Source: Macrostomum lignano | Taxonomy: Eukaryota | Assembly: GCA_002269645.1 (NCBI GenBank) | Contig: NIVC01002709.1 | Span: forward strand, 124,001 to 188,000 | Direction: 5' to 3' | Length of the DNA: 64,000 bases | Shown here: one piece after another, positions 8,266 to 33,900 of the stretch | Numbering within the stretch: the stretch's first letter is position 1 | How the letters are laid out: each line of letters opens with the position of its first letter | The notes under the pieces: generated by a model | Database searches by the model: none | The model's input: the letters and a program-made list of their open reading frames with translations, nothing else | Told to the model about the DNA's origin: nothing | Position numbers and translations under genes: made by a program

Positions 8266-8274
8266 AAAGATCAA

Positions 8275-8939
8275 AACCTAAAACCCTGGAATAATTTCCT
8301 TGTAGCTCTTTCGGGTTTTGGCCATTGCATATAAAAAAGTCATGCACAGTTTATCGCTCATAAAGACCCCTCGGAAGTTTGGAATCTTTAGCTCATTAAC
8401 TAAATCTTGAAGAAAAGTATCTGTTGTCATTTTTACAATTTTTAATTAAAAACCCATTTTTTGCAATCTCCAGTGGCCGGAAGTGCAGGCTTTTTATGTT
8501 GCCATCAAAGACAATCTCTTACTGTCTGCACCTGACAGGCCAATCTTCCTCTATTGAATCGTATAAATATTGTGGTTCTTGGACTGCATTTTCGAGAATT
8601 CATGGATAGTTCTCTTATTGTGACACAGATCTCTGAATACGGCTTTTAACTCATTCCTAACTACATTTTTGGGAACACCCTTAGCTTTTTTAATGGGATC
8701 TGATGCCTCACATTTTACAAAATAAGACTTTGCTCTCAACCCGATAAAATTCAATAATAATCATCGTTCATTTTCCCAAATCCCAATTACCCTCTTGTTA
8801 CGAGGGTCAAACATTTGATTGCCATTCTGTGTTTTGAATGATTCTGGGTATTCAGATAGGTCATACAAGTCCTTCCACGTCAAAAGGTCCTGATAAAAGT
8901 TTAACATTTTGATTGCCATTCTGTGTTTTGAATGGTTCT
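8275..8939 (-). mobile_element. Relic of an older sister Polinton, left part: PolB C-terminus plus internally deleted adenain gene
   Basis: FIGLRAKSYFVKCEASDPIKKAKG...KIGLSGAD...GHWRL is followed by ATG at 8430: MTTDTFLQDLVNELKIPNFRGVFMSD//KLCMTFLYAMAKTRKSYKEII. This parallels the intact adenain at 17675-18076 in the same gene order. Confidence 0.9.
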
Positions 8940-9178
8940 TGTTAGATGCTTAGATGGTTTATAGAAAATCTCTTATGTTAGTTATTACCACGGTGCATAC
9001 TCTATGGCCGAAACTGTCAAGCGATACTCTTTTCATTAAAGTGAGCAGAGCCGCAAGGCTCAAATACACTAAGCGTGATTAGAGAGAGCTGCTCAACTGG
9101 AGCACTTAAGAAATAACCGAGCTAGCTAAAGGCTACATCAAAATTGGTGTTATAGTGTCCGTGCATTCAGAACCAACA
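8940..9178 (+). mobile_element. 5' LTR of Gypsy element (TG...CA, 239 bp) followed by PBS
   Basis: Starts TGTTAG, ends ...AACCAACA. PBS-like TGGCGACGAGG at 9180-9190 precedes gag. GTTCT lies directly 5' (8935-8939). Confidence 0.85.
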
Positions 9179-9190
9179 CTGGCGACGAGG

Positions 9191-9916
9191 ATGGCGACGA
9201 TTCCAATCGAACCCCTGGAGACAGACGTGCCTGCCGAGGTCAGCAGATGGCTGCAGCGATTCGAGGCTATAGCCAAAGTCAAAAAGTGGAACGACGACGT
9301 GCTGAAGTACGCGTTTATAGCACAACTGGGGAAGAAGGCGTTCAACCTTCTGGCTGACGCTTCACTGCCAGCAAAGCCAGAGGAAAAGACCTTCGACCAG
9401 TTAAAGACGCTACTAACAAACGAAACGAAAGCATTGAAGTCGGGACTGGCCTATAGGTACGCTTTCCACCACATGAAGCAGGAAAGCGAAGAAGACACGT
9501 CGGCCTACGCTAGGAGACTTCGACAAGCCGCGGACAACTGTGAATTCACGGACCTAAACGACAAGTTGCGCGACCAGCTTGTGTTTGGCTTGTTCAACAA
9601 AGACATCGTGAGGAAACTGCTAACTGAAAAACTCGCAGACCTCACCTGGGAGAGGGTGACGTCCGTGGCAAGCGCATGCGAAGCCGTAGCGCGTGGTGAA
9701 AAACAGATGAGCAGCAGCGAAATCTTATCGGTCAAGAGGGCGGATCGACCGCGTTTGCCAGAGACTCGACAGAACGATCGCAAAGCGTGGCAGCCAACCG
9801 GGTACGGCAAGTGGAATCAACAGAGCCATGGCAACCAAGCAAAATGTTTCTGCTGTGGCAAGGATGGACACCGCAAGGACGTCTGCCAGCACCGTTCAAA
9901 GACCTGCCTGAATTGA
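9191..9916 (+). pseudogene. gag: Gypsy Gag (premature stop in the second zinc knuckle)
   Basis: WLQRFE...LRDQLVFGL...CFCCGKDGHRKDVC (CCHC knuckle), then CLN*GKTGHLKAVC. Confidence 0.9.
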
Positions 9917-10575
9917 GGAAAGACTGGCCATCTGAAAGCTGTGTGTAAGTCTAATACATCAAGACCTGCTCAACGGTCAAGACAGACGATCGAACCGCAG
10001 GAAGATTCTTCAGGACCTGTAGGTCTTGACAGCATTTTCTCCATAAATAGCAGCTGTGATGAGCCCAGCAGGCGCAGGATAACAAGGCTTCTGCTGGTCA
10101 ATGGGGCCAATCTTCGTATGATTATGGACACTGGATCCGTCTCATCATTTGTATCGCTAAAGATGTATCAAGGCCTTCCGTTGAAATCCAATTTAAGACC
10201 GACAGCCCGATGATTTACAGCATACCAAGGACATCCGGTGCGTGTTTTAGGAGAAGTTACTGTCAGAGTAGAGCGTGGCGGTGCAGTAGCGAACCTGCCA
10301 TTGTTTGTCGTGGACCACAGAGATGTGAAGCCCATATGTGGTTTGGACTGGATTGCAGAGCTGGAGCCGGAGCTTTATGTCGCCATAACCCAAGGTGGTA
10401 ATGCTAACACCACAGAAGAACGGCAATCAAGTCGCATGTCTCCAGTCGACACCGTGAAGGCGTCACTATCGATCAGGCCAGGCGCAAAACCTGTTTTCTG
10501 CAAGCCAAGACCGATTCCCTATGGTATTCAAGAAGACGTAATGAACGAGCTACGAAGAATGGAATCTGAAAGGAC
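9917..10575 (+). pseudogene. pol: Gypsy pol N-terminal part (aspartic protease, pre-RT), frameshifted and cut by the Polinton
   Basis: LLVNGANLRMIMDTGS (DTG protease motif), ICGLDWI, KPVFCKPRPIPY. It continues at 26398 as LEKVQSSEWATPIV. Confidence 0.9.
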
Positions 10576-10923
10576 AGTAGAAGGCATGAGGGGGCTTTTG
10601 GGACAAAATTTTTCACGTCCTCCATAATCCTATTAAATCCATCCATATTATCTCTGACAGAATCAGAAAAAAAAGGGGGGTCGCACTCGCTCACAAAACG
10701 TCCTCCATAATTCCATTAAATCCATCCATATTATCCCTGACAGAATCAGAGCATTATCCCTGACAGAATCAGAGCATAACAGGTGTCATATAATCCACTG
10801 ACATCCACCCATAGCATCTTCGAAACAATCAGAAAATAATCTGCATTCTTCTCCCCATGGGGCCCACATTCAATTCGCAACGTGCTACCAGATCCCAAAG
10901 ACTTTAAATCATCAGCGCAGGGT
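10576..10923 (+). repeat. Left TIR of Polinton (348 bp, starts AGTAG)
   Basis: Reverse complement of 26046-26391, differing by 2 substitutions and an A8 versus A6 run among the differences I noticed. Confidence 0.97.
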
Positions 10924-10960
10924 CCTTACCCTTTGAAAAAAAATTAAATTTTCTCTAAAA

Positions 10961-11197
10961 ATGTTTCCAGTTGTCTCTCCAGGTTCCTATTATACTCAGC
11001 CCAATCCATTGTACAAATCCAAGTACCAATGCAAACTAGAATGCAGCGAATACATGAGAAAATATTGGCCCGACGTTGATATCAATGTCCCTAATATTAA
11101 TCAAGCACTTAAATCTCACTGGTTTGAAAAACACGGAGTAGTCATTAACAATTTTGACAGCTATTATAACTTTGCTGAAGTTATAAGGCAGTTGTAG
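10961..11197 (+). CDS. Small hypothetical Polinton protein (78 aa)
   Basis: Open ORF with the AAAAATG start context shared by the other Polinton genes. No recognised motif. Confidence 0.5.
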   Translation: MFPVVSPGSYYTQPNPLYKSKYQCKLECSEYMRKYWPDVDINVPNINQALKSHWFEKHGVVINNFDSYYNFAEVIRQL

Positions 11198-11258
11198 TAG
11201 CCAACTACACGGTTGTACCTGGCGGCTTATATCGTAATTTTACAAGTCTGAAGACGAC

Positions 11259-12116
11259 TCACATTCTCTCAATAATAATTGTTAGCACAAACTCTTCCCC
11301 GTTAAAATCGACACCAACGCCATCCTCTGTTTCAAACTGCAGAATGATTTCATGTATCTCTCTATTACTCAGAATCACTCTTTTCACGGGGTTTGGCTTT
11401 TGCACAAGCATTTTGCCACCAGCAACAGAGTTTGAAATGTTAAAAAGTATGTTGCTTCGTTTGCCCTTGAATATCCAATCATGGCTCAGATTGCTGCGAA
11501 TTAATATATTCAAACCTTTGACAATGTCAGCGATATTTGGCGCCAAGTACATACCGGATATTAGCCGGGACACAGCAACAGTGCCAGGCGCCTGCAGCGG
11601 GCTTTGGTCTGTGGCGCCACCATAAACTCTCTTTTCAAATCCCAACTCGCGATACCAAGTGCCATCTTTAAACTCTACCTCTGCGTCCTTATGAACTTGC
11701 AAGACAACTCTCATGACAGTTAGATCATAAGTTAATCTAACAGGGAACAGTTTATTTTCTGGTTTGCTTTCATCCGGTATCTCAAAATGCTTTCGTTTAG
11801 TGAAGACGTTCTCCAAGAAGTAATTATAAGTATCCACGCTCTGTGTGCTGACAGGAAATATCACAACCTCTGTTGTAGTACGCTTCCATTTGTAATAAAA
11901 CTTGTTATTTTCCGCTGTCACATTGGGAACATTTGACCACCCAGTGAAATCATTGAGATAGACGTGGTAATTCGCCTCGGGATCCAAACGAAGTGGTTGC
12001 TCCAATTTTTGAATGAAGATTCCGTTTGACTCAGTAATGCGACCCGCTACAGTGATTGGAATGCTCTCCTTAGAGTGTGAAACAATGTTGTTCAGTCTTT
12101 CGGCTATGGCTTCCAT
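11259..12116 (-). CDS. Minor capsid protein (penton, single jelly-roll)
   Basis: Intact 285 aa adjacent to the MCP. The C-terminus IRSNL...SNILF...GKML...NPVK...EIILQFETEDGVGVDFNGE fits the Polinton penton pattern. Confidence 0.8.
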   Translation of the reverse strand: MEAIAERLNNIVSHSKESIPITVAGRITESNGIFIQKLEQPLRLDPEANYHVYLNDFTGWSNVPNVTAENNKFYYKWKRTTTEVVIFPVSTQSVDTYNYFLENVFTKRKHFEIPDESKPENKLFPVRLTYDLTVMRVVLQVHKDAEVEFKDGTWYRELGFEKRVYGGATDQSPLQAPGTVAVSRLISGMYLAPNIADIVKGLNILIRSNLSHDWIFKGKRSNILFNISNSVAGGKMLVQKPNPVKRVILSNREIHEIILQFETEDGVGVDFNGEEFVLTIIIERM

Positions 12117-12138
12117 TTTTTTATTGAAAAAAAATTAT

Positions 12139-13434
12139 TCAAACTTTACTAGACGAGTTATTGATCATATTGACCTTGATCTTCCTCTCAAATGCATAGA
12201 TAATAAACAGATCAACAGCCGTTGCGGCACCAAATTCTTTCCGCTCGATATTAGTCACAATGTTAACAGGGCTATTGTCTGTAGGCATTTGTCTAGCAGT
12301 CACATCAACACCAAATACTGGATATAGTTTTTTATACTGCAAGGTTGTCAAAACAATACCGTTATTCTCTTTGATAGCCAAGTCCGACAGTTCATTGTAA
12401 AACTTACTAATCTTGTTCTCCGAGAAATTCCCATTTTGTGGCAATGCAGGGTATAAATTGTCACTGATCTCATGCTGAATCGATCGAATGTTTCCATGTA
12501 GATATCTACCTACATTAGTTGTATTCCTCATAGTGACAATAATGTACCTTGGATTGCTACAGGAGCCTTCTTTAATGCAAATATTGTGTCTTGCGTCATT
12601 CCGCTCATCTCTGCACATATAAGCTGTATAAGCAACATCAATGTCTTTCTCAATCGCCTTCAAGTATTCAGCTTTGAGTGCAGTCTTGGGCTCAATAATT
12701 TCTAAGTACAGCTCCACGCTAGTTAGCTTAATCTCCATCGATGTATGATTGGCCCCCGACCAAATTCCTCTGTTCCGATCATCTCTAGTCAGTCTAAATG
12801 TGTAGCTAAAGTTGCTTGTCAACCGATTGAAACTATTACAGAAACCACTCATAAACCTCAAAGGTACAAAAATATCTACAGACCTAAACAGCGGATTCTT
12901 AGCAGCATCGTTCTCACCAGCAAGAGCATAGTTGTATCTCTCCTTTCTCTTTTTGTAACCAGGGTCATTCTCATCTCCTGTCTGTTCATTGGGGATGAAT
13001 CCAGCACCGCTCCCCATCTGAATAAAATCCGGGTTCTCAATCAAGCACTGGGTATCATAGACCACACCAAAGTTTGCTATTCTTTCCAACTCTGTACTTC
13101 CATTGGACACATTAAACTCTTTGAACATATAAGCCCAGAAATTACTGGTTAGTGCGACATCCGCATTGTGTAGATCATCATTAGCATGAGCGGCGTCTGC
13201 GCCTCCTTTAGTTTTGAATTGAAACGTCATATAGAAGCCGCTCCTTAGACTGTGGACACTGACCAAAGACGAACATCCATTGTATGTAAATGTCAGTGTT
13301 TGGCCAGGACCGAGATTAGTTTCATTCTGATTTTCCTGACTGGGAACTCTTACCTGAGTCGCTTTGATTGTGCTATCATCACTCAAAATAGGCTTGTTAA
13401 TTTTGTAGAAAACTGGTGTCAGTGGGTCGTTCAT
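12139..13434 (-). CDS. Major capsid protein (hexon-like double jelly-roll)
   Basis: Intact 431 aa. Size, position beside the penton, N-terminal D.S...NL..G.TLTF, NPRYIIV and LYPVFGVDV fit Polinton MCPs. Confidence 0.8.
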   Translation of the reverse strand: MNDPLTPVFYKINKPILSDDSTIKATQVRVPSQENQNETNLGPGQTLTFTYNGCSSLVSVHSLRSGFYMTFQFKTKGGADAAHANDDLHNADVALTSNFWAYMFKEFNVSNGSTELERIANFGVVYDTQCLIENPDFIQMGSGAGFIPNEQTGDENDPGYKKRKERYNYALAGENDAAKNPLFRSVDIFVPLRFMSGFCNSFNRLTSNFSYTFRLTRDDRNRGIWSGANHTSMEIKLTSVELYLEIIEPKTALKAEYLKAIEKDIDVAYTAYMCRDERNDARHNICIKEGSCSNPRYIIVTMRNTTNVGRYLHGNIRSIQHEISDNLYPALPQNGNFSENKISKFYNELSDLAIKENNGIVLTTLQYKKLYPVFGVDVTARQMPTDNSPVNIVTNIERKEFGAATAVDLFIIYAFERKIKVNMINNSSSKV

Positions 13435-13464
13435 TTTTTAACTAAAAATAAAATAAAATAAGAA

Positions 13465-14712
13465 ATGAAGCGAAAAAGTACACAGCAGATATCTGAACTA
13501 GAAAAGCTGGCGCAGGCAGAAAAGAGAGTTACCAAGCTAATAAATAAGGAGCAACAATCCTACAATGAGTTTGTCCAAGCAGCCACAGAGTTTCATAAAC
13601 CCGGGTATGGAGAAGCTAAGAAAAATATTGATCAGGTCAAAGAAACTATCGACGACATACAGGAAACCCAGGTGCAAAAGGCTTTGGGAAAAATTCCAGA
13701 AGCACCACAGATACAACCGCAACGACAGATACAACCGCAACCACAACAATCACAACCACAACAATCACAACCACAACAGCAACTAAAAGTGACAGATAAC
13801 ATTTTTGGACCAGTAGAGCGTGTCGAACATGATGGGAAATATGTATTTGGAATAAGTATGTGGAGAAAAAACATTTATAATGAACCAGTGGAATATTATA
13901 TCGACATAAATAAGGAAAAGATTTCTGTTGTCAAAGGCTCAGAAGCTATGAAAATTCCTTTCACAGACGCCTTACTGACTTTTATGACCAAGAACCAAGA
14001 GAGAATCTCGGACAAGCAGCTAAAGAACTACAGAGATCTAGTGACTTTTTCTCTTGCTAGAGATATAGAAATACTAAAGGTCCCAGAAGTTCTGAAACAC
14101 ATGTACAATGGCGGTGTCAACCTGACTAAATTCAAAAAGTACAAGCACTTTAAACAATGGTTTGGTTTGCCAGATCAGGGGGAAGTCATTGATCAGATGA
14201 AATATCTAGAACAACAGCAACAGCAACCACAACAACAACAACGACCGCCACAACAGCAGCAACATTTCACAGAAGAACAAGTACTCAGTCAACTCGAGCA
14301 GTTAGACCCTTTGAAAGTAGCTGAATATAAGAAACAAAACCCAACAGACTGGCAACGCTTAGAACAACACTCTCCAGATCGAATGAATAGAATCAATCAA
14401 AGAGTTTTCACACCTCAACAAAGACAGGCACCACATGACAGTTCCATCTCTGAAAGTGAGCAGTCTTTTGCATCACCTCCCCAGCAGCTACAAGCCCAAC
14501 CAACTCCACAACCCCAAGACCAACCGCCCTCAACTGGAAAAGGAATTTCTGAAATCTACAAGCGGTTAGCTGTTCTTCTAGGAGCAGCAAAGACCGGAAT
14601 GAAAGATGAGAATAGAAAAGAGTTCGTTCACATCCTCAATAAAATGCTTGAGAGAAAATACATCGATAAGAGGGCGAGAGAGCTTCTGCTTTCGCGGTTC
14701 AACAAAAAATAA
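13465..14712 (+). CDS. Gln-rich conserved Polinton core-like protein (PZ-like)
   Basis: Intact 415 aa. Central FG...DGKYVFG...LKNYRDLV block and C-terminal GKG...RLAVLLGAAKTG...EFVHILNKMLERKYI recall a conserved Polinton protein. Family name from memory, unverified. Confidence 0.6.
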   Translation: MKRKSTQQISELEKLAQAEKRVTKLINKEQQSYNEFVQAATEFHKPGYGEAKKNIDQVKETIDDIQETQVQKALGKIPEAPQIQPQRQIQPQPQQSQPQQSQPQQQLKVTDNIFGPVERVEHDGKYVFGISMWRKNIYNEPVEYYIDINKEKISVVKGSEAMKIPFTDALLTFMTKNQERISDKQLKNYRDLVTFSLARDIEILKVPEVLKHMYNGGVNLTKFKKYKHFKQWFGLPDQGEVIDQMKYLEQQQQQPQQQQRPPQQQQHFTEEQVLSQLEQLDPLKVAEYKKQNPTDWQRLEQHSPDRMNRINQRVFTPQQRQAPHDSSISESEQSFASPPQQLQAQPTPQPQDQPPSTGKGISEIYKRLAVLLGAAKTGMKDENRKEFVHILNKMLERKYIDKRARELLLSRFNKK

Positions 14713-14728
14713 TTTTTTTCAAGTAAAA

Positions 14729-15118
14729 ATGCCTCTTATTTTCGAAAAAGACATTGACAAATACTATGACAAAGAGGAACTTAATCTCATTAAACGCGGA
14801 TCTGGACTTTTCCCTGCAGGCCACTATCCAAGAAAAGAACGCTCAGGGAACGGTCTTGCCGATTTGATCGCTCAGGGGGCCAAGATTTTTAAGGTCATTG
14901 GAGAGAACAAAGAGAACATCAAGAACGTTGCCGAAGCGGCTGGCAGTGTAGCCACAGCAGCCAAAAAGATAAAGGATACTGTAACACCTAAACAAGAGAT
15001 TCAACCTCCACTGGCCCCGCTGGCCCCGCTGGCCCCAAATCCAGACAGTGTGGACCCTGCAGTCTATGAGAAGATGAGAGCAAGCATTAAAAAAGGAAGT
15101 GGTTTCAAATTTGACTAA
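14729..15118 (+). CDS. Small virion core/membrane-lytic-like protein (129 aa) with GxG motifs
   Basis: AAAAATG start at 14729. Contains KRGSG, RSGNG and KKGSG; GNG is followed by amphipathic LADLIAQGAKIFKVI. Confidence 0.6.
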   Translation: MPLIFEKDIDKYYDKEELNLIKRGSGLFPAGHYPRKERSGNGLADLIAQGAKIFKVIGENKENIKNVAEAAGSVATAAKKIKDTVTPKQEIQPPLAPLAPLAPNPDSVDPAVYEKMRASIKKGSGFKFD

Positions 15119-15142
15119 AGGTACTTTCCGAGGGTACAAGAC

Positions 15143-15312
15143 TAGTCCCGAAATGACACATCTAAGTCCCAAAATGACACATTTAAGTCCCAAAATGACA
15201 CATCTAAGTCCCAAAATGACACATCTAAGTCCCAAAATAACACATCCAAGTCCCAAAATGACACATCTAAGTCCCAAAACGACACATTCAAGTCCCGAAA
15301 TGACACATCTAA
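15143..15312 (+). repeat. 21-bp tandem array (AGTCCCAAAATGACACATCTA, about 8 copies) in Polinton intergenic region
   Basis: Direct inspection. Confidence 0.95.
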
Positions 15313-15346
15313 ATGATTTATTATTTAATTTTTTTTCATAGAAAAA

Positions 15347-16157
15347 ATGGACTTTTCAAACGACTTCAATCCTCACTGGACGCGTAATCAGATTAAGTTT
15401 TCTCATCACGAGTCAATTCCGAGTCATTCAGATGCATTGTTGTTGGTTCATCAGGTTCAGGTAAAACATTCAGAGTCTTTAACATGCTTCTTAGACCTGG
15501 CTTTATCGACTATGACACTCTGCACATCTACTCTCCCACACTGTATCAAGATGAGTATAGAATGTTGATTGCAGGGTTTCAAAACAAGCTGAACAAAGAG
15601 GACATTATTGCATGTTTTAATAACCAAATGAGCCTTCCCAGTAACCCAGAAATTGTAGCTGCTGAATATTCAAAGCACCTCAAAGACAATGAAAAATGGC
15701 AGAACATTAAAGTGTTCACCTATGGAGATCCACAGGCTGATCCAAAGACCAAACTTCTACCCCAACCAGATGAGCTAGAAAAGGGGAGAAAGCATTTGAT
15801 CGTCTTTGATGATTGTATGACAGGCCCACAGAAGCAGATAGAAAACTATTTTACAAGAGGACGACATAACAATTGTAATGTAATTTACATTGCACAGAAC
15901 TGGTTCGAGCTCCCGAACAAAACAATTCGTGGGAACTGCAATCTGATTCTCCTGTTTCCAACCATTCCACAGACAGGTTAAAAAGATTTTACAATGAGGT
16001 CATTGCGCCTGCCTATTTCATAAATCCAACAAAAAACTCAAGCAGAAAGATTTCACAAGAGGAATTCGTTAATCTTTGCTATGACAAGTGGAATCAGCCT
16101 TACCAGTTTGTGATTATCAGCAAAGAAAAAAGAACTGTAATTAAAATTTGCTATTAA
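15347..16157 (+). CDS. A32/FtsK-like genome-packaging ATPase (two frameshifts)
   Basis: A shifted frame gives FRCIVVGSSGSGKT (Walker A), then KHLIVFDD (Walker B), FTRGRHNNCNVIYIAQ, IRGNCN, and FVNLCYDKWNQPYQF after a second shift near 15975. Confidence 0.92.
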
Positions 16158-16160
16158 AAG

Positions 16161-16904
16161 ATGTCAATAAACTTTGCAGGTGAATCCATTTCTGGCAACA
16201 GCGCTCTTACATCAGCTCAAATATCCATCCTTGACAGGCGATATATCAACAGCGACGAAGAGATCCCAGAGATCAAACTGAATAAAAACAGACTGAAACA
16301 ATTAGAGCGCTCCATGCACCAGTTGCAAATAAACATGGAAGATCTCAGGCTTAAAGTAGCCAGGCAGAAGTTTGAAAGTGATAAGCTTTATGTACAGGTT
16401 GTACACGCAACTAATGAACTAAGGTCAGAAATAACTTCGGCAGTCTCGCAAATCAACGGTTTAAGAACAAATTTAGCATCGACAATTAATCTTCTGAGAA
16501 ACTCCATTGATAGGCGGATGCGCATTCTTGAAGAAGGAGTTTTCACAAACACAGCTAAAGTGAATAATTTAGAAGAGTTCATGAACCAGTCAACAGCGTT
16601 GCATGATAGAATTAAAGAAAACGTCGCAACCAACACAGGTAAAGTGAGGAATTTAGAAGAGTTCATGACTCAGTCAACAGCGTTGCATGATCAAATCAAA
16701 GTAAGAATTACTGCAAATAAAGTCTTTGTAGATTTAGTTTTTACCGAATGGCAGAAATCGGTGAGAAGAATCGGTCGTCTTGAACGCTTGCATAATCTCA
16801 AAAACATTGACGCTGAAGAGGCACCACAGACCACAAGGGAAACAAGTGATCCAACCGACTTGTTTGAGATCATGCGTAGAATGAAGCTCACAGATAATGA
16901 ATAG
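16161..16904 (+). CDS. Coiled-coil protein (247 aa) with a 27-aa internal repeat; possible fibre/spike
   Basis: Intact ORF with heptad-like pattern. The repeat is NTAKVNNLEEFMNQSTALHDRIK / NTGKVRNLEEFMTQSTALHDQIK. Confidence 0.6.
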   Translation: MSINFAGESISGNSALTSAQISILDRRYINSDEEIPEIKLNKNRLKQLERSMHQLQINMEDLRLKVARQKFESDKLYVQVVHATNELRSEITSAVSQINGLRTNLASTINLLRNSIDRRMRILEEGVFTNTAKVNNLEEFMNQSTALHDRIKENVATNTGKVRNLEEFMTQSTALHDQIKVRITANKVFVDLVFTEWQKSVRRIGRLERLHNLKNIDAEEAPQTTRETSDPTDLFEIMRRMKLTDNE

Positions 16905-17013
16905 GCAGATTCAGAGACCTGTTGCCGTCACTGCAGACGAAGCAATCAACCGTAAAACAAATCTAACCACCACCAACTAGTTGCCGATTTTTTTTTAAAA
17001 AATTCCCAAAAAA

Positions 17014-17670: not shown

Positions 17671-17674
17671 ACCC

Positions 17675-18076
17675 CTATGAAACACAGGTACGAATAATTT
17701 CCTTGTAGGTCTTTCGTGTTTTGGTCATTGCATACAAAACAGTCATGCACAGCTCACCGCAAATATCACTGCTAAGACCTTGAAGAATAAAGTCTGAGTG
17801 GTAAATTTTTGTATTATTTTTTCCCTTCATATAATTTCTTAGCTCTTCTGGTACTGCCGTCCCATAGCTATCGAAGTAATAACACTTGTGCTTGCGATCG
17901 GGATCAATCACCCAGCAAACCCAATGAGATCCTGGCTTATCGGTGGTGTCAAAGTTCATGATGCCGCATTCCTTTCTTAGAGGAAAATCAGGCAGAGTGT
18001 CCCTCATAAATATTCCTCTAAAGTTTGGGATTTCCAGTTCGTTAGCCAAATCTTCAAGAAAGTTATTTGTCGTCAT
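17675..18076 (-). CDS. Adenain-like cysteine (maturation) protease
   Basis: Intact. Catalytic motifs GSHWV (His), YFDSYG (Asp), ILQ (oxyanion Gln) and ICGELC (Cys). Confidence 0.95.
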   Translation of the reverse strand: MTTNNFLEDLANELEIPNFRGIFMRDTLPDFPLRKECGIMNFDTTDKPGSHWVCWVIDPDRKHKCYYFDSYGTAVPEELRNYMKGKNNTKIYHSDFILQGLSSDICGELCMTVLYAMTKTRKTYKEIIRTCVS

Positions 18077-18181
18077 TTTTATGTCATTTTTTTATGAGGT
18101 TTATTAAACTTTCTCTCAAACCTAAACCCAATATCCACCTCCTAAACCTAACCTCCAGTGCCCGAATCTAACCTCCACCTC

Positions 18182-24490: not shown

Positions 24491-24528
24491 AAGTTATATT
24501 TATTTACCATTTTTACTATTTTTATTTA

Positions 24529-25296
24529 CTATTCTTTTTTTATTTGAATAACACCCATGCTCCAATAGGTTTTATATTTATTCGAACACATTAACATGTC
24601 TTCAATATCATTTTTTAAGGTGTAAAGTTCCTCAAATGTTATATTTAGCTTAAAAAAACGAGGATAATCATGTAATGTTTTACTAAGAGACAACATTTTT
24701 CTAATAGTGCTTTTAGCATATGTTATCTCATGTCGTTGCAAAAACTCCAAAACCTGATCATCACACCTTTTACATTTAACAGTTTCTTCAGGATGTTCTA
24801 TTCTATGTTTCGCTGCGTTGTGGTTAAGCCATACACCACAGATGTATGTGGCAATGAGCATACGATTATTACATCTTTTTAAACTTGTGACTGCCGTCTG
24901 TAGTTGTTCTTCTACAGATAACGGCATATTCGTATCAACAATAGAATAGGGGTGAATAAATTCATCGACCCCTTCAAATTCAAATACTTTTGCGCAAAGA
25001 TATTGATGAAGCGTCTCACCAGTTGGCCGTAGTTTTTGCTTCTTTACTTTTACTTTCTTTCTTGCTGGTTGATCTTGATCCTCATCTACATCCATGCGCT
25101 CTTCATTTAATTTTTTTGATCGATCTTCTAAATTGCCACAACTAGGTACTAAGGGGCAATCTAATGTAACTTTTAAATGAATTAAATCATCTTCAGATAA
25201 GAGTAGTTCGTGTTTATTGTTATCTTTTGCTAACTGATTTAGCTGTAAAATTTTAGAGAAGAGAGATAGATCTGGTGTGACAGACAAGTCAGACAT
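24529..25296 (-). CDS. Hypothetical Polinton accessory protein (255 aa) with basic NLS-like cluster
   Basis: Intact ORF with AAAAATG start. An acidic patch is followed by RKKVKVKKQK and a helical C-terminal half. Confidence 0.75.
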   Translation of the reverse strand: MSDLSVTPDLSLFSKILQLNQLAKDNNKHELLLSEDDLIHLKVTLDCPLVPSCGNLEDRSKKLNEERMDVDEDQDQPARKKVKVKKQKLRPTGETLHQYLCAKVFEFEGVDEFIHPYSIVDTNMPLSVEEQLQTAVTSLKRCNNRMLIATYICGVWLNHNAAKHRIEHPEETVKCKRCDDQVLEFLQRHEITYAKSTIRKMLSLSKTLHDYPRFFKLNITFEELYTLKNDIEDMLMCSNKYKTYWSMGVIQIKKE

Positions 25297-25719
25297 TTTT
25301 AACCGAGTAACTCTTCAAAAGTAGTTGTATAAATAAGCTTTCTTCCTTACCCGACAGACTTTGGGGGGGGGATGTCCGCCTGATAGCGGCGAGACGACTT
25401 GGCTTTGGGGATAAGGGGAGAGAATTGAGTAGACTGAGAAGAGCTGTGGGACGAGGGACAATGGAGGATCAGGGGTATGGTTTTGGTTGGCCATACGTAT
25501 GCCATACGTAGCATACACGTGCTGCGGGATTGACTGTAGGTAGAGAAGTGGAAAGAGAGAGAACTTGCTATGTAGAAATAAATGCTCGCGGTGAGGAGAA
25601 GCTTGTGCATAGGAAGAGAGGTTCTCTCTGTATACGGGGTCTGCGTACTCTGAGTTAGTGAGGGCATGAAGCTTCTGCATGGGGGAAGAGATATTTGCTC
25701 TGTACATGCTCGGCGGCGG

Positions 25720-25822
25720 AACATTTGTTGGGCTGAGGAACAAATGTTCGGCTGAGGAACATTTGTTCGGCTGAGGAACATTTGTTCGGCTGAGGAACAT
25801 TTGTTCGGCTGAGGAACATTTG
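25720..25822. repeat. 19-bp tandem array with internal palindrome (GAACA-TT-TGTTC)
   Basis: About 5 copies of ATTTGTTCGGCTGAGGAAC. Confidence 0.9.
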
Positions 25823-26045
25823 TAGCTGGCTCTGTAGCTGGTGCCCTAGAGGGTAGTTTTACATTTTCCCTTAGATAAATAGTTGCAAGCGTTGATTTTA
25901 GATGTAAGAGCATTGTGTATGAATAGATCTTAGTAGACATTAACAAGCTTGGCAGAACTGTTCAGCGTGAGTTACTATAATAAGAACCTCGGGAGACAAC
26001 TGGAAGCATTTTTATTGAGAATTTAGATTTTTTCGGAGGATGAGC

Positions 26046-26391
26046 ACCCTGCGCTGATGATTTAAAGTCTTTGGGATCTGGTAGCACGTTGCGAATTGAA
26101 TGTGGGCCCCATGGGGAGAAGAATGCAGATTATTTTCTGATTGTTTCGAAGATGCTATGGGTGGATGTCAGTGGATTATATGACACCTGTTATGCTCTGA
26201 TTCTGTCAGGGATAATGCTCTGATTCTGTCAGGGATAATATGGATGGATTTAATGGAATTATGGAGGACGTTTTGTGAGCGAGTGCGACCCCCCTTTTTT
26301 CTGATTCTGTCAGGGATAATATGGATGGATTTAATGGGATTATGGAGGACGTGAAAAATTTTGTCCCAAAAGCCCCCTCATGCCTTCTACT
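26046..26391 (-). repeat. Right TIR of Polinton (346 bp, ends CTACT)
   Basis: Reverse complement of 10576-10923, followed by the TSD AAGGAC. Confidence 0.97.
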
Positions 26392-26397
26392 AAGGAC

Positions 26398-27133
26398 AGT
26401 TGGAGAAAGTGCAATCGAGCGAATGGGCCACGCCTATAGTGTGTGTCAGAAAGCAATCTGGAAGTATCAAGATTTGTGGCGACTATAAGATAACACTGAA
26501 CCCAGTCTTGGAAGACATGGTAGCGACAACGCCATCGATAGATGAAGTGATGTCCAGATTGGGTCGAGCCCGGAAATTCTCCACGCTAGATCTCACAAAC
26601 GCATACTTGCAGGTACCAGTCGGCGCCGAGACAAGTCAGATGCAAACTTGGAGCACACCCTTTGGCCTGTTTCGTCCAACCTCACTGGCTTTTGGGGTAA
26701 AACAAGCACTCGCTATCTTCCAGTCATATATGGATAAACTCCTGCTAAACCTCGACGGCGTGATATCCTACCAGGACGATATCCTCATCTGGGGCGAAAG
26801 TCAGACTGATCATGACGAAAGGCTCAACACAGTAATGAAGATCCTGGAAAACAATGGACTTCGCATAAATGCTGACAAGTCTGTACTAAACAAGTCGTCA
26901 ATATGATTTTTGGGCTACGAGATCAGTGCAAATGGAATTCGCCCACTAAAGGAGGAAGTGGAAGCCATTGCCGGATTAAAAGAGCAAAGAGACCTCACAC
27001 AACTACAGGCGTTCTTGGGAATGGTCGATTTCTATGGACGATGCATTCCTAACTTGGCTACGTTGAAAGATTCATTGACCAATCTAACCAGGTCAGGTGT
27101 GCGATGGACCTGGGGAAGGTAAGAACAGAAGGC
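26398..27133 (+). pseudogene. pol: Gypsy reverse transcriptase (continuation of pol), truncated after RT
   Basis: WATPIVCVRK...ICGDYK...FSTLDLTNAYLQ...TPFGLF...YQDDILI...GYEIS...FLGMVDFYGR...WTWG. Confidence 0.95.
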
Positions 27134-27194
27134 AAACATCTAGCTTCTTTGTTCCTTACGGAGACTTCCAGTCGTACGACTTCTTTGGGCCACG

Positions 27195-27915
27195 ATGGAC
27201 GGAAATGACGCCGAAGACGAGTTTTTCGTAAAAGTTGTCTCTCGCTACCCCGTCGTTCTCGACAAAAGCAAGACGCCCGGCACAATGGAGAAGAAGAACG
27301 CAGCATTCAGCTCAATACAAAAGGACCTGGAGGATAATGGAGTAAATCTAACCTGCAAGAAGATCAACAAGAGACTTTCGAACATTTAAGACGCGGCTGA
27401 AAGCAAAGACGGACTTGAAGAAGACCGGAAATAAAAAGATTGTTCTGAAGAAGTGGGAAGAATCCATGCTACAGTTTTTCAACATCGAGGAAAACCCAGT
27501 TTTTTCCAAGGTCCCTGACGCTCGTGTGTGTGGGGTTGCATCACAACTCGCTGACGACGATGAACCACAGACACCCCCGAGACCCAGCCCGAGCAACGAG
27601 GAGTCTGATCGCCAACCCTCGACGCCTGCGAGCGTTCAATCACGGCAGCAGTCTGCGAGAGCATCCGCGCCGCGACGAGTCACCAACGAGACGACTGCGA
27701 CGATAGGACTGAGCAATGCCGAGCTTCAGCGAATGGTGCTACTCGAGCAGCTCAGGTACATTTTCGTACGAAGACACGGCGCGAACTGGAACGGGAGGCC
27801 TACCAACGACAGTCGCAGATGCAACAGCACACAAGCGACGTCGGGGATGCGTCTGCTTCGTATATGCAACTTTAGGGGCCAATATAAAGCTTATTATAGG
27901 TTTTCGGACTGCTAA
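27195..27915 (+). pseudogene. Harbinger Myb/SANT-like DNA-binding protein (frameshifted)
   Basis: KSK...KKNAAFSSIQ...KKINKRLSNIKTRLKAKTDLKKTGNK...LSNAELQRMVLLEQ, convergent with the Harbinger transposase. Confidence 0.85.
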
Positions 27916-28243
27916 GCACGCTCGTTAGCTACTTGTTATTGATAATATTGTTACTTACGGTTACAGTCAAATTGTTAGTTTACAATTAGTTTACGTGGTT
28001 ACGACGCTTTAAATATACGACGACAAGTAAGAAAAAACGGTAAACGTTTATTGTTATCATAACAAACGTAAAACACAGTTGTTATTTACTAACGTTAATA
28101 TTATTAGCTAGGTTAGGGTCAGATTGCAATACCTTACAATTAGTTTACCTAGTTAGGAAGCTTTAAACATACGTTGACAAATATGAAAAAACAGCAAACG
28201 TGAGCAGCATGAGGTAAGTCAGTACGGATCGCGATGCAGTTTG

Positions 28244-28365
28244 TCATGGCCCATGCCTGAACATGATGTCGGCGATAGCGTTCTGGCGCTGAACTCCGGC
28301 TGCTCTTTTCGCGGCCTCACTGGCATTGTTCACGTCGAACGGTGGTGCGAGGGGCTCTTCTATCT
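28244..28365 (-). CDS. Detached C-terminal tail of the Harbinger transposase
   Basis: In-frame continuation EEPLAPPFDVNNASEAAKRAAGVQRQNAIADIMFRHGP* after removing the LINE. Confidence 0.8.
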
Positions 28366-31300
28366 TCTTCTTCTTCTTCTTCTCCGTTTATCGCCTTGCG
28401 GCGTGGAGTGAACAGCGTCAGGCTTCACCGCAAGTGCGTTTGTGTCGCGCCATGTTTGTCGCCGATAACGTTCTTCCGCACTTGTCGCATTCTGCTGTCT
28501 TCCTTCGGTATTTTCTTGCTCTTCTCTTGTTCTCCTCCATCTCCGGTGGATTGTGGTGTTGTTCTTTACATGTCTTTCTGTGCCTCGCTAGGTTCGATTT
28601 TACGATTGTGCTTCCACATTGCTGACATTTTACTCTTGACGCATCTATTTCCGTCTCGCCTTGGCACACCTTCTCATGGTTTGCCAGGGTCGCTTCCTGT
28701 CGGAACTCCTTGTCGCATTTGTGGCATCTGAATTTCACCGGCTCTTTAAACACGCGATGCATCCTCTTTTGGTGGATGGTTAGTCCCCCTTGCTTTTACA
28801 CACTTTGCCGCAGAGTTCGTATTCGCATTTGAAGCCATCTCCAACCTCTCTCGGGTTCGTTTTTACGTGGTACCGTTCTTGACTTCGTTCGATCAGGCTG
28901 TTGTTACTGTCCGTCTTGGCCTTTTTTCCTTGCACTCTCTCCCACTCTTGTAGGTGTACAGTCCGCTGGTGTACTACGTTCCGCCAGTGTTTCCTGTCTA
29001 GAACGTGGCGTTCGATGTCTTGCGGTTCCATACCGGCTTCCCGGATGAGGCGCTTCCAGTAGGATATGGTGTTGTTTTTCCGTTTTTTGCGCTTAGGGAT
29101 CCTTTCCAGGCCTCTGTACCACCCTAATACGGCTTGCTTTATTTGTCTGTCGTCTTCCATCCGTAGGACGTGGCCAATCCTTTTTAGGTGACTTTTCTCA
29201 ATCTTTGTTCTTAATGACACAACACCTAGTTCGTTGCGGATATCTTGCATATTTACTCCTAGGCTTTCCATTTCGCGCAGCGGTTCCATTCTCTTGTTGG
29301 ACCAAATGTTGCGGTATGTTTTGTCGATGAACTGTTGCATTTTCTTGATTTCGCCGAGCAGGAACGGGCGGGTGTTCGCATGGAACAGGAGTACACTTTC
29401 CACGCACGCCTCGACCACTTTAGCTTGTGTGGTCTTTTTCAGGCGGCATCGATGGAACCTTTTCCTGATCGCATTCCACGCTTTGGCGGCTCTCTGGATT
29501 CTTTGCTGTGTGTCGTATCTCCTATCCATCCACGACCCTAGGATGCGAGTTTTACCTCCGACGGATGTTCCTAGGGCCATCTCCTCCTGTTTCTCGTCAT
29601 TTGTCAGTTCTTCGAACTTCTTCATATTCTCTTTGGTCGTTGTTAGGCTTCTCGTCAGTTCTCTGCCATTGCCTAGGATGGTGGTGTCGTCTGCAAAGAG
29701 CGATGAGGTCCACTTGACCGTTCGCATCTCCGAGTTGTACTGGTTGATTCTCTGAGGTGGCAAGGAGTGTCCAGGTAAGTACGTCCATTCCACCCCGCAG
29801 CTTAATCCTCTGCTGGCCGCTTCTGTCTCCCGAGTTTCTTCCGCTTTCCTGATGCTCGCCTGGTGGTAGATGTTAAATAATATCGGGGAAGTTGGGCATC
29901 CCTCGCGTAAGCCTCGCTCGGGTAGCCATGTTTCGCTTGATTTCTCCTTGCCTTGCACTTTATACGCGGTATGTTCATGCAGGTCTTTCAGTTTTTCGAT
30001 CGTCTCTTGCGGCATCTTGTACGCTTGGAGGATTCCCCACAGGATCGGCTTGCACACTCTCGGATATGCCTTACGGAGGTCTAGGAGGATTGCCGTTTCT
30101 GTGTCTTCGATGTTGCAGTCTCCTGATGCTCTTTTTGTTTCCAGGTACTCGGCAATGTCCTCGTGCATCCTGGTGAATATCTGTGCGTTGTCCGCCGTCG
30201 ATCTTCCACTTCGGAAGCCGTTCTGGTTGTCATCTAGCGCTCCTATCACTTCTGCCCAATTCCGGATTCTGGTAGCCAGAATGCGGGCTAGTATTCTGCT
30301 GAGCATAGGTAATAGGCAGATTCCTCTGTAGTTATTCATGTCTGCTCGGTCTCCCTTCTTGAATAATGGAATAATGAGTCCAATTTTCTCGTTGTCATTC
30401 CATTTGTGCGCTCGCTCTTCAAACAGAAAGCGGATCCTTGCATACAGTTCTTTACGTACTGCGTCTGGGGCGATTCTAATGTATCTGATACGAAGTTCGT
30501 CCTCCCGGGACTTCGGTCTTTCATTTCTTTAATGGCTGCTTCTATTTCAAGGTCCGTTGGGACTGTCGTCAGTTGTGTTCTTGTCTTTTCCGTATCTTCC
30601 TGTTCCTTCATGGTTTTGATTGATCTGATCAGTTCGGCTGTTTCGGTTTCCGGGTTTTCCAATCTAGTCCCTTGGATTCTTTCCAAATGGTTCTTGAAGT
30701 CATCTTCGTCAAAGTTGGTGTCTGTTCCGCTGTTGTTCCACTTTCCTCGCTTGTCCAACATCCTTAATTTCTCATAGACCACTGCGATCTGGCCTCTATC
30801 CGCGGCATTTCTGCATTCCTCAGCGATTGCGTCCCACCAGTTTTCCTCCCATTCCGCGAGCTTCTTTTTTATCTTTTTTCGGATAGTTGTAGTCGCTAGG
30901 CGGGCTAGGGTCGTCGCCGCCGAGGTGGGGTCTTCTCTGACGCATGCGTTGCGATGGGCCAGCGTTTCTGCCAGCTCTCTTTGTTGTGCCTCGTGTTCGT
31001 CCAGGTGGGGGGCCATCCACGGGTTCGTTACTCGTGTCACCGTGCCGCATACGTGCCTTGCACTGTCGATGATTGAGTTTTGAACGTCTGTCCATTTCAT
31101 GTCTGTGAGGTTCCTGTCCTGCTTCTCTCTTAGTTCTTCGAATCTTGTTAGTATTTCTTTTTTTAACTCAGATGCCTTGTTCTCGTCGTGGAGTTTCCTC
31201 CAGTCGATGTTCTTCCGCCTGCGTCTCGTCTGGTCCTTGACGTACTTGTTCCGTGTCCAGCCCCGAATTATGACGGTTTTGGGCAGGTGGTCCGACAAGT

Positions 31301-32469
31301 TGCACTTGTTGTGGTTCTTTATCGTTTTGACCAGGCGGTGTCTGTCCTGCGCGCGAGTTATGAAGCCGTCTATCTCATACCACGTGCCGGTGCTTGGATT
31401 TCTCCAGGTTCCCCGGTTTTTTGACTTGTGGAACGAGTTGATCCAGGCTAGATCATTTGTCACTAACCAGTTTGCGAGGTCTTCGCCCTGCTGGTTGGTC
31501 AGTGCTAAGCCAAACTTTCCTCGATGTTGCGCGTCTGTGTTTTCAAATTTGCCAATCTGTGCGTTCATGTCACCGCCAATGATGATTGGTTTGTTCTTTC
31601 TTTCATTATGAATGTAACGTTCCAGGGTGTTTCTGAGCTCTGCTAGTTCCGTTTCGTAGTCCGGAGTGCCTCTAACTGGGCAGTACACGCTGATCAATGT
31701 CGCGTCGTATATTTCTATCATGATCGCTCTGTTCGTAATCTTCTTTTTTGATCCGCTGTCCTTCCACGTCTGGTACAATTCCTGGTTTAGGATGATGCCT
31801 GTTTTCTTGCCGTGAATCAGGAATGAATTCTGTTTCGGTTGGTGGTAACTTCTTATTCCGTCTGACGGTACCGATAACTCCGAGATGAGGGCTACCTCCC
31901 AATTCTCACTCATAATCTTTTTTGCGATCTCTCCAAAACGCGTGCCGAACACGTTTGCCCGCTGGACATTCCATGTTGTTATTCTCAGCTCGTTGTTTAA
32001 TGTTTCTCTGCGTTTGTTAATCTTCTTCGTTCTTCTTGTTCCACGGCGTCGGGTTCTTCTGATTAGTCTGCTTTTCTTCTCTTTTTGGGTTTTCGGTCGT
32101 TTTGTGCTTTTTCTTGGGTTTTCGGATTCTTTCTTTGGTCTTTCCTTCCTGTTTGGTCCTGGGTTCTTCTCTACTGTCGTCAGCTGTGCTTTCACTTTCG
32201 CCGACCTTTGTTTCCGGCTTGGTCTTGTGCGGCTCTGCTGTTCCTCTAGCTCTCTACCTTTGTGCTGTCCACTGGTTTTTGCCTGGTTAATCTCGGTACC
32301 CAGGTCGGCTACTTCTGGGTACCACGAGTGAAAAGGGCCGGTGTCGTCGTACTGGCTTCCGCCAGTGGCTTCGATCCATGGTCCCTTCCGTTTGCTCCCT
32401 TCTTTGCCAAGACTTTTTCGGGTCTTGTCCACTGGCCACCTCGTGAAGGTGGGGGAACAATCGGCCAGC
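28366..32469 (-). mobile_element. Full-length RTE-like LINE (APE + RT + C-terminal zinc fingers), 14-bp TSD
   Basis: TSD GGGCTCTTCTATCT at 28352-28365 and 32470-32483, with a (GAA)n 3' tail. APE motifs TWNV, GDMNA, EIDG, SDH. RT motifs YRGICLL, LDLRKAY, GLREGCPTSP, LFADD. Confidence 0.95.
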
Positions 32470-33405
32470 GGGCTCTTCTATCTCCTCCTCAATGGCTTCA
32501 TCGTCAACGGCATCATCGTTGAGCTCCTTCGCAATGTTGTGTAGGACACAGCAAGCGACAATAAATGTCGGAACTCTTTCCAACCGGACACGGCACATGT
32601 ATTTGAGGATCGGAAAACGTCGTTTTAATTGCCGAAATGTATTCTCAATTACGACTCGCGCCTCTGAATGTCGCTTGTTGAAGTACACTTCGTCTGGTGC
32701 TCCAGGATTCCGGAATGGCTTCGTGAGGAAGGGTGTGATGCCGTAGCCCTCGTCTCCTAGTAGCACTATCCCTGTTCTATTCGACAGGTCTGCGTAGATG
32801 TCCGGATTTTTAGGAATGCGATTATCGTGAACAGACCCTGGCCAAGACGCGTCAATACTAGTAAACATGCACTTCTCGTTCGTTGTGGCCTGCACATTTA
32901 AGGAGGCATACCCTTTTCGGTTCACGTACTCATTGCCAATAACACCAGCAGGCTTCTCGATCTGCACGTGTGTGCAGTCAATCACTCCAATGGCAGACGG
33001 GTATTTGTACTTGTCAAAGAAGCTCCGCTTGGCTTCTTGAATGGTTTGTGGTGACTCAGTTGGCCACTTAATGAACGATTGTGCTTCGCCGTAGATAGCT
33101 TGTACAACTTGCCATGCCGTTTTAGAAACAGTCATCTGGTGTATGCCAAACTCACGAGCTACGCCAGTCTGAAAGCCTGGATTGGCGAGATATCTGAGAG
33201 CCACCTCCATGCGTTCAACAGGTAGAAGTGCACCATCACGCGTTTCACGACCAGTGCCAATGAATCTTTCCGCGAGAGCTTCTACACTATTTCGATGAAA
33301 GCGAAACAGACGCCGGTATTCGTCGTCCCGATACACATCTGAGTGATGACGCTCCAAATACAGTTTCCGCCGAGCAGGCGCTACATCAGGCATGTATTCG
33401 GCCAT
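32470..33405 (-). CDS. PIF/Harbinger (HARBI1-like) DDE transposase, interrupted near its 3' end
   Basis: FRFHRNS, ALRYLA.G, GVIDCTHV, YVNRKGYASLNVQ, WPGSVHD, LLGDEGY, ARVVIE, LKRRFPIL, CCVLHN. Confidence 0.95.
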
Positions 33406-33529
33406 GCTCCAGAGTTTGAAAATCTCAAGAAAAGCTTTAGCTTTAGCTTTTAGGAGTTTAGCTTTGACGATTTATCTGCTTTTTACACTGCTACTCGTTC
33501 TTGAGTCTGCCAGGAGGCTGCCTCAACGT

Positions 33530-33654
33530 TTTCTGAGCAATTGCTCAGAAATTAAGTTTATGGTAGCAGTTTTATTCTTATTGACCTGAGAAATGGCTCA
33601 ATCTCAGAGTATTATCAGAGTATGAGCAATTTCTCAGTTTATTCATACAGGCCC
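33530..33654. repeat. Harbinger right subterminal region and probable TIR
   Basis: Perfect 22-bp palindrome TTTCTGAGCAATTGCTCAGAAA (33530-33551) plus two degenerate copies. The region ends TATTCATACAGGCCC. Confidence 0.6.
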
Positions 33655-33727
33655 GAGTAAATGCTTGAGTTGGAGCAGTTGCTCATTTTATTCATATGAC
33701 CTAGTGTCCGTGAATCCAGAACCAACA
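33655..33727 (+). mobile_element. Remnant 3' LTR end of the Gypsy element, followed by TSD GTTCT
   Basis: TAGTGTCCGTGAATCCAGAACCAACA matches the 5' LTR end TAGTGTCCGTGCATTCAGAACCAACA. GTTCT at 33728-33732 equals 8935-8939. Confidence 0.8.
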
Positions 33728-33900
33728 GTTCTGGGTATTCAGATAGGTCATACAAGTCCTTCCGCGTCAAAAGGTCCTGATAAAAGTCTACTGTTTCAGT
33801 GTTCAGGATCAAGCTGTCTGTGTCTGTATACAGAAGCTTTATTTTATTCCCATATTTCACCTTCATGTAGAACTTGTACATTAAACTTTTAATTGATTCG
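33728..33900 (-). mobile_element. Relic of older sister Polinton, right part (PolB motif C)
   Basis: LMYKFY...KIKLLYTDTDSLIL...DLYDLSEYPE is the upstream continuation of the fragment at 8440-8939. Confidence 0.9.

Follow-up and report, generated by a model that had tools for sequence, protein, structure and literature searches.

A nest of Polinton, Gypsy, Harbinger and LINE elements in Macrostomum lignano, probably built by successive independent insertions

How did five layers of transposable elements come to be packed into 26 kb of the Macrostomum lignano genome, and in what order did they arrive? The locus lies in a window of 64,000 nucleotides (nt) of contig NIVC01002709.1 (C2709 below; assembly GCA_002269645.1, positions 124,001-188,000), and coordinates given without a contig name count within this window. 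A young Polinton is inserted in the pol gene of a Gypsy retrotransposon, which itself lies within a fragment of an older Polinton (the relic); a Harbinger DNA transposon occupies the 3' long terminal repeat (LTR) of the Gypsy, and a long interspersed nuclear element (LINE) interrupts the Harbinger transposase. The nested structure is genuine and its order in relative time can be recovered, and in all likelihood the nest consists of ordinary stacked insertions of already known element types. We consider it probable that these were independent insertions, one after another, into neutral and repeat-rich DNA where a tandem host gene array has its 3' end. Protein domains were assigned by a Pfam scan of the window, in which 14 of 28 frames gave a match at E 0.01 or better. 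The layers and their borders are as follows (TSD, target-site duplication; RT, reverse transcriptase; ORF, open reading frame).

8263..8446, minus strand: remnant of the relic protease (adenain) with an internal deletion of about 220 nt; its pieces are 88% and 74% identical to inner-element positions 17692-17760 and 17984-18095
8464..8939, minus strand: broken C-terminal part of the relic protein-primed DNA polymerase B (PolB); 71.8% identical in DNA to inner 18204-18651, 58% in protein
8935..8939: left 5-nt TSD of the Gypsy, GTTCT
8940..9178, plus strand: Gypsy 5' LTR, 239 nt, TG...CA, with a primer-binding-site-like word at 9180
9191..10575, plus strand: Gypsy gag and protease and the beginning of RT, interrupted by in-frame stops; 92.6-94.6% identical to four free copies; domain labels from motifs by eye
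10570..10575: left 6-nt TSD of the young Polinton, AAGGAC, which occurs just once in each sister locus
10576..26391: young full-length Polinton/Maverick, 15,816 nt, in one of three locus copies only
26392..26397: right 6-nt TSD of the young Polinton, AAGGAC
26398..27133, plus strand: Gypsy RT (PF00078, E 3.3e-19), up to a deletion junction immediately ahead of RNase H
27134..33701: Harbinger, with about 630-670 nt missing on the left and its right end at 33701; ends mapped against free copies
From 27195, plus strand: Harbinger ORF of DNA-binding type
28352..28365: 14-nt TSD on the 3' side of the LINE
28366..32469, minus strand: non-LTR retrotransposon (the LINE), 4104 nt, with AP endonuclease (PF14529), RT (PF00078), C2H2 fingers (PF00096) and a trinucleotide tail
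32470..32483: 14-nt TSD on the 5' side of the LINE
From about 33405, minus strand: Harbinger transposase (PF13359, DDE_Tnp_4, E 2.2e-33)
33702..33727, plus strand: remnant of the Gypsy 3' LTR, 26 nt, from the 3-nt Harbinger target on; 24 of 26 positions identical to the 5' LTR end
33728..33908, minus strand: continuation of the relic PolB, with the right GTTCT; 70.8% identical in DNA to inner 18600-18773, 60% in protein

An initial annotation of this DNA had proposed that the Polinton splits the Gypsy pol at 10575/26392 with an AAGGAC duplication, and this was borne out by the exact duplications, the termini and the empty sites of two sister loci. In both sister loci the Gypsy pol has a single AAGGAC, and all nine free Gypsy copies examined continue through the site without interruption. 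GTTCT was likewise found beside LTR termini at both relic breakpoints, as claimed (8935-8939 and 33728-33732, with TG.../...CA ends), and the Harbinger transposase is indeed split by a LINE flanked by a 14-bp duplication (28352-28365 and 32470-32483), a word that has no other occurrence in the window.

The order of events comes mainly from the two sister loci, which are copies of the same locus on contigs C476 and C109 at a divergence of 0.96-1.10%. Both contain the relic, the Gypsy, the right end of the Harbinger, the LTR remnant and one AAGGAC, with the Polinton site empty. The sisters retain only 254 nt of the Harbinger and carry 1036 nt more of the Gypsy pol, with RNase H followed by the integrase zinc finger; in the window copy, the deletion begins at 27134 and takes away RNase H, integrase and most of the 3' LTR of the Gypsy together with the left end of the Harbinger. 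Both deletion joints lie at short words common to Gypsy and Harbinger, and two separate deletions at such words, one in the window copy and one common to the sisters, would account for the missing 3' half of the Gypsy and left end of the Harbinger. Nesting and empty sites give the order relic, Gypsy, Harbinger, split of the locus and then Polinton, with the LINE after the Harbinger. Dating by transposon interruption is found in PMC2517846.

Could part of the nest be an assembly chimera joined through repeats? The Polinton and the window-type deletion are present in one contig only, and the inner element has 27 private indels (21 within 21.2-24.2 kb, 22 of a single base) against 29 private substitutions, which points to a low-quality consensus; the sister loci, by comparison, show 3-10 indels per 35-40 substitutions. 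However, a join made in error would not put a 6-nt duplication at both exact termini, and such 6-nt duplications also flank all five of the other paired elements. Moreover, the relic-Gypsy and LTR-Harbinger junctions were found in three contigs, and the 5' junction of the LINE is bridged by one contig of run X4 (30160-32514), from a study distinct from that of runs X2 and X6. Among the contig pieces listed, the empty-site form appeared as loose ends. The paired target-site duplications argue against a chimera, and we regard this explanation as most improbable.

The three locus copies have 21, 19 and 15 private substitutions over 3617 sites, of which the 21 (0.58%) represent the window lineage since the split. 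Compared with five relatives, the inner Polinton has 29 private substitutions in 12,374 sites, at most 0.23%, which is below the value for the window lineage. The LINE is 99.5-99.9% identical to five other copies, with 0-2 substitutions in 1.5-2.5 kb when compared with four of them and 5 in 1.8 kb for the remaining one. Such near identity suggests that it was inserted after the split, and the LINE is probably the youngest layer. The initial annotation had described the order as datable, which holds in relative terms, mainly through the sister loci; the order of Polinton and LINE is not fixed by the nesting. The relic branch measures about 0.115 substitutions per site, which is at most some 20 times what a single lineage has diverged since the split; the value is an upper bound, as it includes change before insertion. 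Absolute dates are impossible here, and the dating is relative only. LTR-LTR dating was dropped, as only 26 nt of the 3' LTR are left, and the divergence between the Polinton's terminal inverted repeats (TIRs) was discarded as a clock, as it is higher than the interior of the element allows. As a separate observation, Piwi-domain genes are often present three times, each on another contig, in line with the number of copies of the locus; this suggests a genome-wide triplication, either a triplicated genome or three retained haplotypes.

The inner Polinton itself has the following components.

10576..10994, plus strand: left TIR, 419 nt, 95.5% identical to the right TIR, with 7 mismatches in the outer 364 nt
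11259..12116, minus strand: probable minor capsid protein, open frame, named from size and position
12139..13434, minus strand: major capsid protein, open frame (PF21738, DJR-like, E 1.2e-8)
13465..15118, plus strand: two ORFs (frames of 416 and 171 aa) without a Pfam match
15397..16157, plus strand: packaging ATPase, broken frame (PF04665, Pox_A32, E 3.2e-6), with 3 private frame-breaking indels
16161..17670, plus strand: two ORFs (frames of 248 and 223 aa), with weak Pfam matches below the cut-off only
17675..18075, minus strand: cysteine protease (adenain; PF00770, E 3.5e-4, 20.7 bits, just under the cut-off of 21.3)
18182..22000, minus strand: protein-primed PolB with an endonuclease-VII-like insert, in at least 5 frames (PF03175, E 4.5e-17; PF02945, E 7.3e-5), with 5 private breaks
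22800..23600, minus strand: rve integrase region, heavily frame-broken as assembled (PF00665, E 0.002, below the cut-off), with 11 private frame-breaking indels
23661..24095, plus strand: parvovirus-type phospholipase A2-like ORF (PLA2X-like; PF08398, E 8.5e-14)
24529..25300, minus strand: accessory ORF (frame of 261 aa), outside the cover of the five aligned relatives
25976..26391, minus strand: right TIR

Its ends (AGTAG at 10576 and CTACT at 26391) and its size agree with the AG(T)...(A)CT termini and the 12-25 kb given for Polinton/Maverick elements (PMC8097293), and its PF03175-class PolB together with the PLA2X gene fits the Alpha adintovirus type as defined in PMC8502044. The closest database relatives of the PolB are only 40-46% identical, and as far as the database search goes, the element appears to represent an undescribed family. 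The frame assigned to the minor capsid protein had no Pfam match, and a look-alike search with it returned viral hypothetical proteins only; the three broken N-terminal PolB frames had no Pfam match to an OTU domain. The element is full length, yet it is not intact as assembled in the sense of PMC8097293, where the core ORFs are all open. All 19 frame-breaking indels counted in the ATPase (3), PolB (5) and integrase (11) are absent from the five relatives, and the integrase region is present likewise in relatives. As the indels of the element are about as many as its substitutions, mostly single-base and clustered, much of the frame breakage may be consensus error. A further PolB break near 18.7-18.9 kb has a register common to 2 of 11 relatives, the closest one included, so that inheritance of this break from a defective parent mobilised in trans is possible.

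Two side observations concern the same element. The PolB insert (18751-20523) is endonuclease-VII/HNH-like (PF02945), and such an insert is on record for many database relatives, including snake and sponge entries; an HNH insert has been treated as special to nematode and oomycete pPolB2 (10.1101/2023.08.22.554363). The TIRs hold a repeat unit of 82-83 nt that is expanded to long arrays in other copies, for example on C1830, C1526 and C5003.

Does the outer layer record an earlier wave of the same lineage? The initial annotation had regarded it as a sister Polinton. What remains of that description is Polinton-derived PolB and protease sequence, 677 + 176 nt (about 0.85 kb) with two gene remnants; in the flanks (1-8262 and 33909-64000) no TIR match, TSD or other Polinton gene was found, and the candidate of a whole outer Polinton was therefore dropped. 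PolB and adenain do follow one another in the same order in relic and inner element, on the minus strand in both, as had been noticed, and tblastn matches of the relic protease cover residues 4-33 and 82-133 of the inner protease. The high identity claimed for the pair did not hold up: in DNA it amounts to 71.8% across 451 nt and to 70.8% across another 178 nt, in protein to 60.7% across 135 residues, and the 30-mer quoted in its favour (at 8713 and 18458) is genuine but a best-case patch. The relic also contains a tandem duplication of 93 nt (8810-8902, again as 8903-8939 plus 33733-33790), the unit of which is single in all four relatives tested. Its nearest kin are other decayed fragments at 79-84% DNA identity, and the six contig regions with relic relatives that were examined contained fragments only.

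A protein tree of the PolB C-terminus was built with FastTree. Of 50 loci, 29 aligned too poorly and were left out, as were 3 of the 20 database proteins sampled from 120, and removal of near-duplicates reduced 40 rows to 31. In this tree the relic, the other decayed fragments and the young family formed one clade with an SH-like support of 0.974 relative to other genomic PolBs and 17 database relatives. A DNA tree, made without 6 of its 22 loci, shows the old fragments as an unresolved radiation; in it the distance from relic to inner element is 0.37 substitutions per site and direct sisterhood has a support of 64. The two waves of the same viral lineage proposed in the initial annotation are supported at the level of the clade, while relic and inner family do not appear to be direct sisters. 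The genome is very rich in Polintons, with 974 PolB candidates, of which 91 were scored, and 662 TIR candidates, numbers that are lower bounds and not copy numbers; the PolBs comprise several distant lineages, many with long open frames. Two PolB matches on C271 showed no similarity to the Polinton family of the window.

An alternative is that chromatin or sequence targeting would steer the Polintons of this genome into or close to existing Polinton DNA, with the window as one case. Ends of the young family were picked by TIR score and followed into at most 1 kb of flank; 28 of 30 stretches contained a terminus, which gave 20 separate sites, and the domain scan covered 50 of the 95 open frames. 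Three sites lay in LTR-retrotransposon pol, one in a piggyBac-type transposase, two against the interior of the own family and four beside host-like domains, and ten had no domain call; this family is commonly nested in such a way, and a Polinton inside an LTR pol is ordinary in this genome. The two same-family ends (C1098:28370-29370 and C2506:13190-14190) correspond to window positions 15292 and 15428, 136 nt apart and near the ATPase start, in an unselected sample. Nests across lineages also exist: on C1412 (113829-138958) a second PolB element with TIRs of 1396 nt lies within a young Polinton copy, and on C4948 a young copy ends at 14583 within another PolB family. On C538 and C1884, a relic-type fragment and a distant PolB fragment are about 2-3 kb apart. 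However, the C1412 and C4948 cases were chosen for co-location, both same-family ends may belong to rearranged elements known from one end each, the 6-nt targets have no common word by eye, and selection against genic insertions would likewise cluster elements. In the window the target was the Gypsy pol and not the relic, and as the site lies 1.6 kb from the relic, the meeting of both waves requires no targeting. Such a preference seems very unlikely to us. In addition, a young-family Polinton on C2406 (73577-93000) lies in a Harbinger derivative and is itself interrupted within PolB by about 8.4 kb of other sequence.

The initial annotation had also suggested that such element graveyards can be traps of the PIWI-interacting RNA (piRNA) cluster type with an antiviral sequence memory; in such a trap, a long precursor with captured pieces of Polinton, Gypsy, Harbinger and LINE would give small RNAs that silence their families. 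No result points to an antiviral memory here, and nothing in the sequence speaks for a cluster of this kind, although five element layers do lie within 26 kb, the model itself arose from clusters of nested elements (10.1101/458059), and the genome contains 96 Piwi-domain matches, PIWI and AGO clades counted together. With regard to strand, 68% of the annotated coding bases are on minus, as is the upstream host array. The Gypsy runs on the plus strand and the genes of the Polinton point in both directions, which differs from flamenco with its antisense bias (10.1101/458059). The overwhelming bias to one strand of a uni-strand cluster is therefore not found here, which has no bearing on dual-strand clusters, as these require no orientation bias and germline piRNA clusters show none (10.1101/458059). 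Other points speak against a trap: the two sister copies have the same flanks and no new element inside the nest, with most of the Harbinger lost; the flanks consist of a host gene array and not of further element layers; the young Polinton family is widespread though the relic predates the split; and other parts of the genome contain similar nests. Six of the 20 other family ends lie in transposon or Polinton coding sequence, so the nest does not require a trap. These points, drawn from sequence, would lower the case for a trap, which appears quite unlikely. That both proposals apply is a speculative combination that we consider unlikely: Polintons would favour DNA of older Polintons, of their own lineage (with a hotspot close to where the ATPase starts) and of others, and the layered nests would be sources of piRNAs in which successive waves of a single viral clade are recorded.

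Independent, successive insertion into a neutral spot remains our preferred reading. Nesting and empty sites place the old Polinton fragment first at the site, followed by the Gypsy into this fragment and the Harbinger into the Gypsy 3' LTR; the locus then became three copies, today about 1% apart, after which a young Polinton of the PolB clade of the relic entered the Gypsy pol of the window copy only, with the 6-nt duplication typical of its integrase. The LINE entered the Harbinger transposase. The spot may gather elements since insertion into dead transposon DNA costs nothing. Several results weigh against this reading. No piece bridging the right Polinton junction was found among the 32 contig pieces listed, with 1600 more beyond these. 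The three loci are nearly star-like, and the deletion shared by the sisters requires a short internal branch or gene conversion. The 7 mismatches in 364 nt of the TIRs exceed what the interior rate predicts (P ~0.002). The flank survey had no random control, so that it shows neither nesting at chance frequency nor enrichment, and the two same-family ends among 20 exceed a uniform model (P ~0.007 at an assumed genome share of 0.6%, 0.06 at 2%).

Regarding the other elements of the nest, the Gypsy has the LTRs, primer-binding site, TSD within 4-6 bp and order of RT, RNase H and integrase that define Ty3/Gypsy elements, with the RT in the window and RNase H and the integrase zinc finger in the sister locus; the three frames at 9191..10575 had no Pfam match. 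All four free copies examined have LTRs of about 212 nt and 5-nt duplications. The U3 of the nest copy (8940-9106) is unlike that of most free copies and matches at least 7 other loci at 91-95%, over 167 nt only, which suggests an LTR subfamily or a recombinant LTR. From its features the element may be Mag-like. The Harbinger is 94-97% identical to free copies across most of its length; its right end and a 3-nt target (TAG) were mapped, its left end is deleted in the window, and free copies keep both ends. The first 64 aa of its partner ORF and a later frame gave no MADF or Myb match in Pfam. Harbinger copies on C271 and C1811 continue through the LINE site, and the candidate of a Harbinger and LINE block copied in from another locus was dropped, as no other locus above 97% was found. 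The LINE has the AP endonuclease, RT, simple-repeat tail and variable TSD of APE-type non-LTR elements, and it may be RTE-like; a look-alike search gave generic RT clusters only. Its family includes at least 12 other copies at ~100% over the 1 kb tested and looks very recently active.

The nest is bordered on both sides by pieces of the host gene array.

7732..8262, minus strand: duplicate of the last (transmembrane) exon and 3' untranslated region (UTR) of the host gene array, left of the relic; 85% identical to 36481-36827
33909..34060, minus strand: further, incomplete duplicate of the last host exon with its 3' UTR, right of the relic; 85-88% identical to 36458-36604 and 55091-55237

The left copy has strong matches on C2709, C476, C109 and C4805 only, apart from three weak matches (72%) elsewhere, and shows a splice-acceptor-like site and a hydrophobic frame, read from sequence. 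The idea that the sequence flanking the relic is a carrier transposon was dropped, as it is a local host exon repeat. The tandem array covers 36437-64000 and continues at C2709:188001-208000, with units of about 17-18.5 kb (36437-45459 is 96% identical to 55067-64000), and is present also on C476, C109 and C4805. It lies on the minus strand, has small exons and probably encodes a single-pass membrane protein, with weak matches to an Ig C2-set domain (C2-set_2, E 0.0027, below the cut-off) and an F5/8-type domain. Upstream of the nest, an older, broken non-LTR RT fragment (3471-5055, minus) is common to the sister loci. Two small elements resembling miniature inverted-repeat transposable elements lie at 2152-2550 (56-nt arms; missing from both sisters) and 35210-35755 (206-nt arms).

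This locus is a clean, relatively dated case of Polinton activity in an animal genome, useful for Polinton paleovirology if unsurprising. Because one of three near-identical locus copies gained a full-length Polinton after the split, the family has been mobile in recent times; its decayed relatives are evidence of a much earlier presence of this PolB clade. If Polintons did target one another, or if the nest made piRNAs, its filled and empty copies would permit a within-genome test of a trap for a DNA virus-like element. We found no account of this three-layer arrangement or of Polinton self-targeting in animals in the literature covered, which largely leaves out subscription journals and excludes supplements.

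Compared with known systems, the nest Gypsy resembles Ty3/Gypsy elements in its TG...CA LTRs, primer-binding site, 5-nt TSD and RT-RNase H-integrase order, and differs in its variant U3 and in the loss of RNase H, integrase and most of the 3' LTR. The Harbinger shares with PIF/Harbinger elements the DDE_Tnp_4 transposase, the second ORF on the opposite strand and the 3-nt target (10.64898/2026.05.26.728016), unlike which its left end is deleted, one copy of the target is left, this target is TAG and the second ORF had no MADF/Myb call in Pfam. Several nested element families in one place are common to the nest and to flamenco and the germline clusters of the piRNA trap model (10.1101/458059), from which the nest departs by its small size, its position beside a host gene array and the lack of a strong strand bias. 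Retroelements within polinton-type genes have been described for polinton-like viruses and virophages in cryptophytes, Cafeteria and Guillardia (PMC12220804); the hosts there are protists, and the accessible text contains no layer of a Polinton inside a retrotransposon. Nematode Polintons likewise comprise several coexisting PolB lineages, some with an HNH-type endonuclease insert (10.1101/2023.08.22.554363), whereas here old and young members of a clade are nested at one locus, and the main text of that study does not use the word nested. The closest likeness of the inner element is to Alpha adintoviruses (PMC8502044, PMC8097293). It differs from these in the low identity to PolB kin (40-46%), a terminus of AGTAGA instead of (AGT)2, the broken frames as assembled and the lack of a Pfam match to an OTU domain in the N-terminal frames. 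It shares with them a size of about 16 kb, TIRs near 400 nt, 6-nt TSDs and AGT...ACT ends, as well as a gene set of PF03175 PolB, ATPase, protease, double jelly-roll capsid, an rve integrase region that matches weakly here, and a PLA2-like gene, the last of which is tied to Alpha virion modules (PMC8502044).

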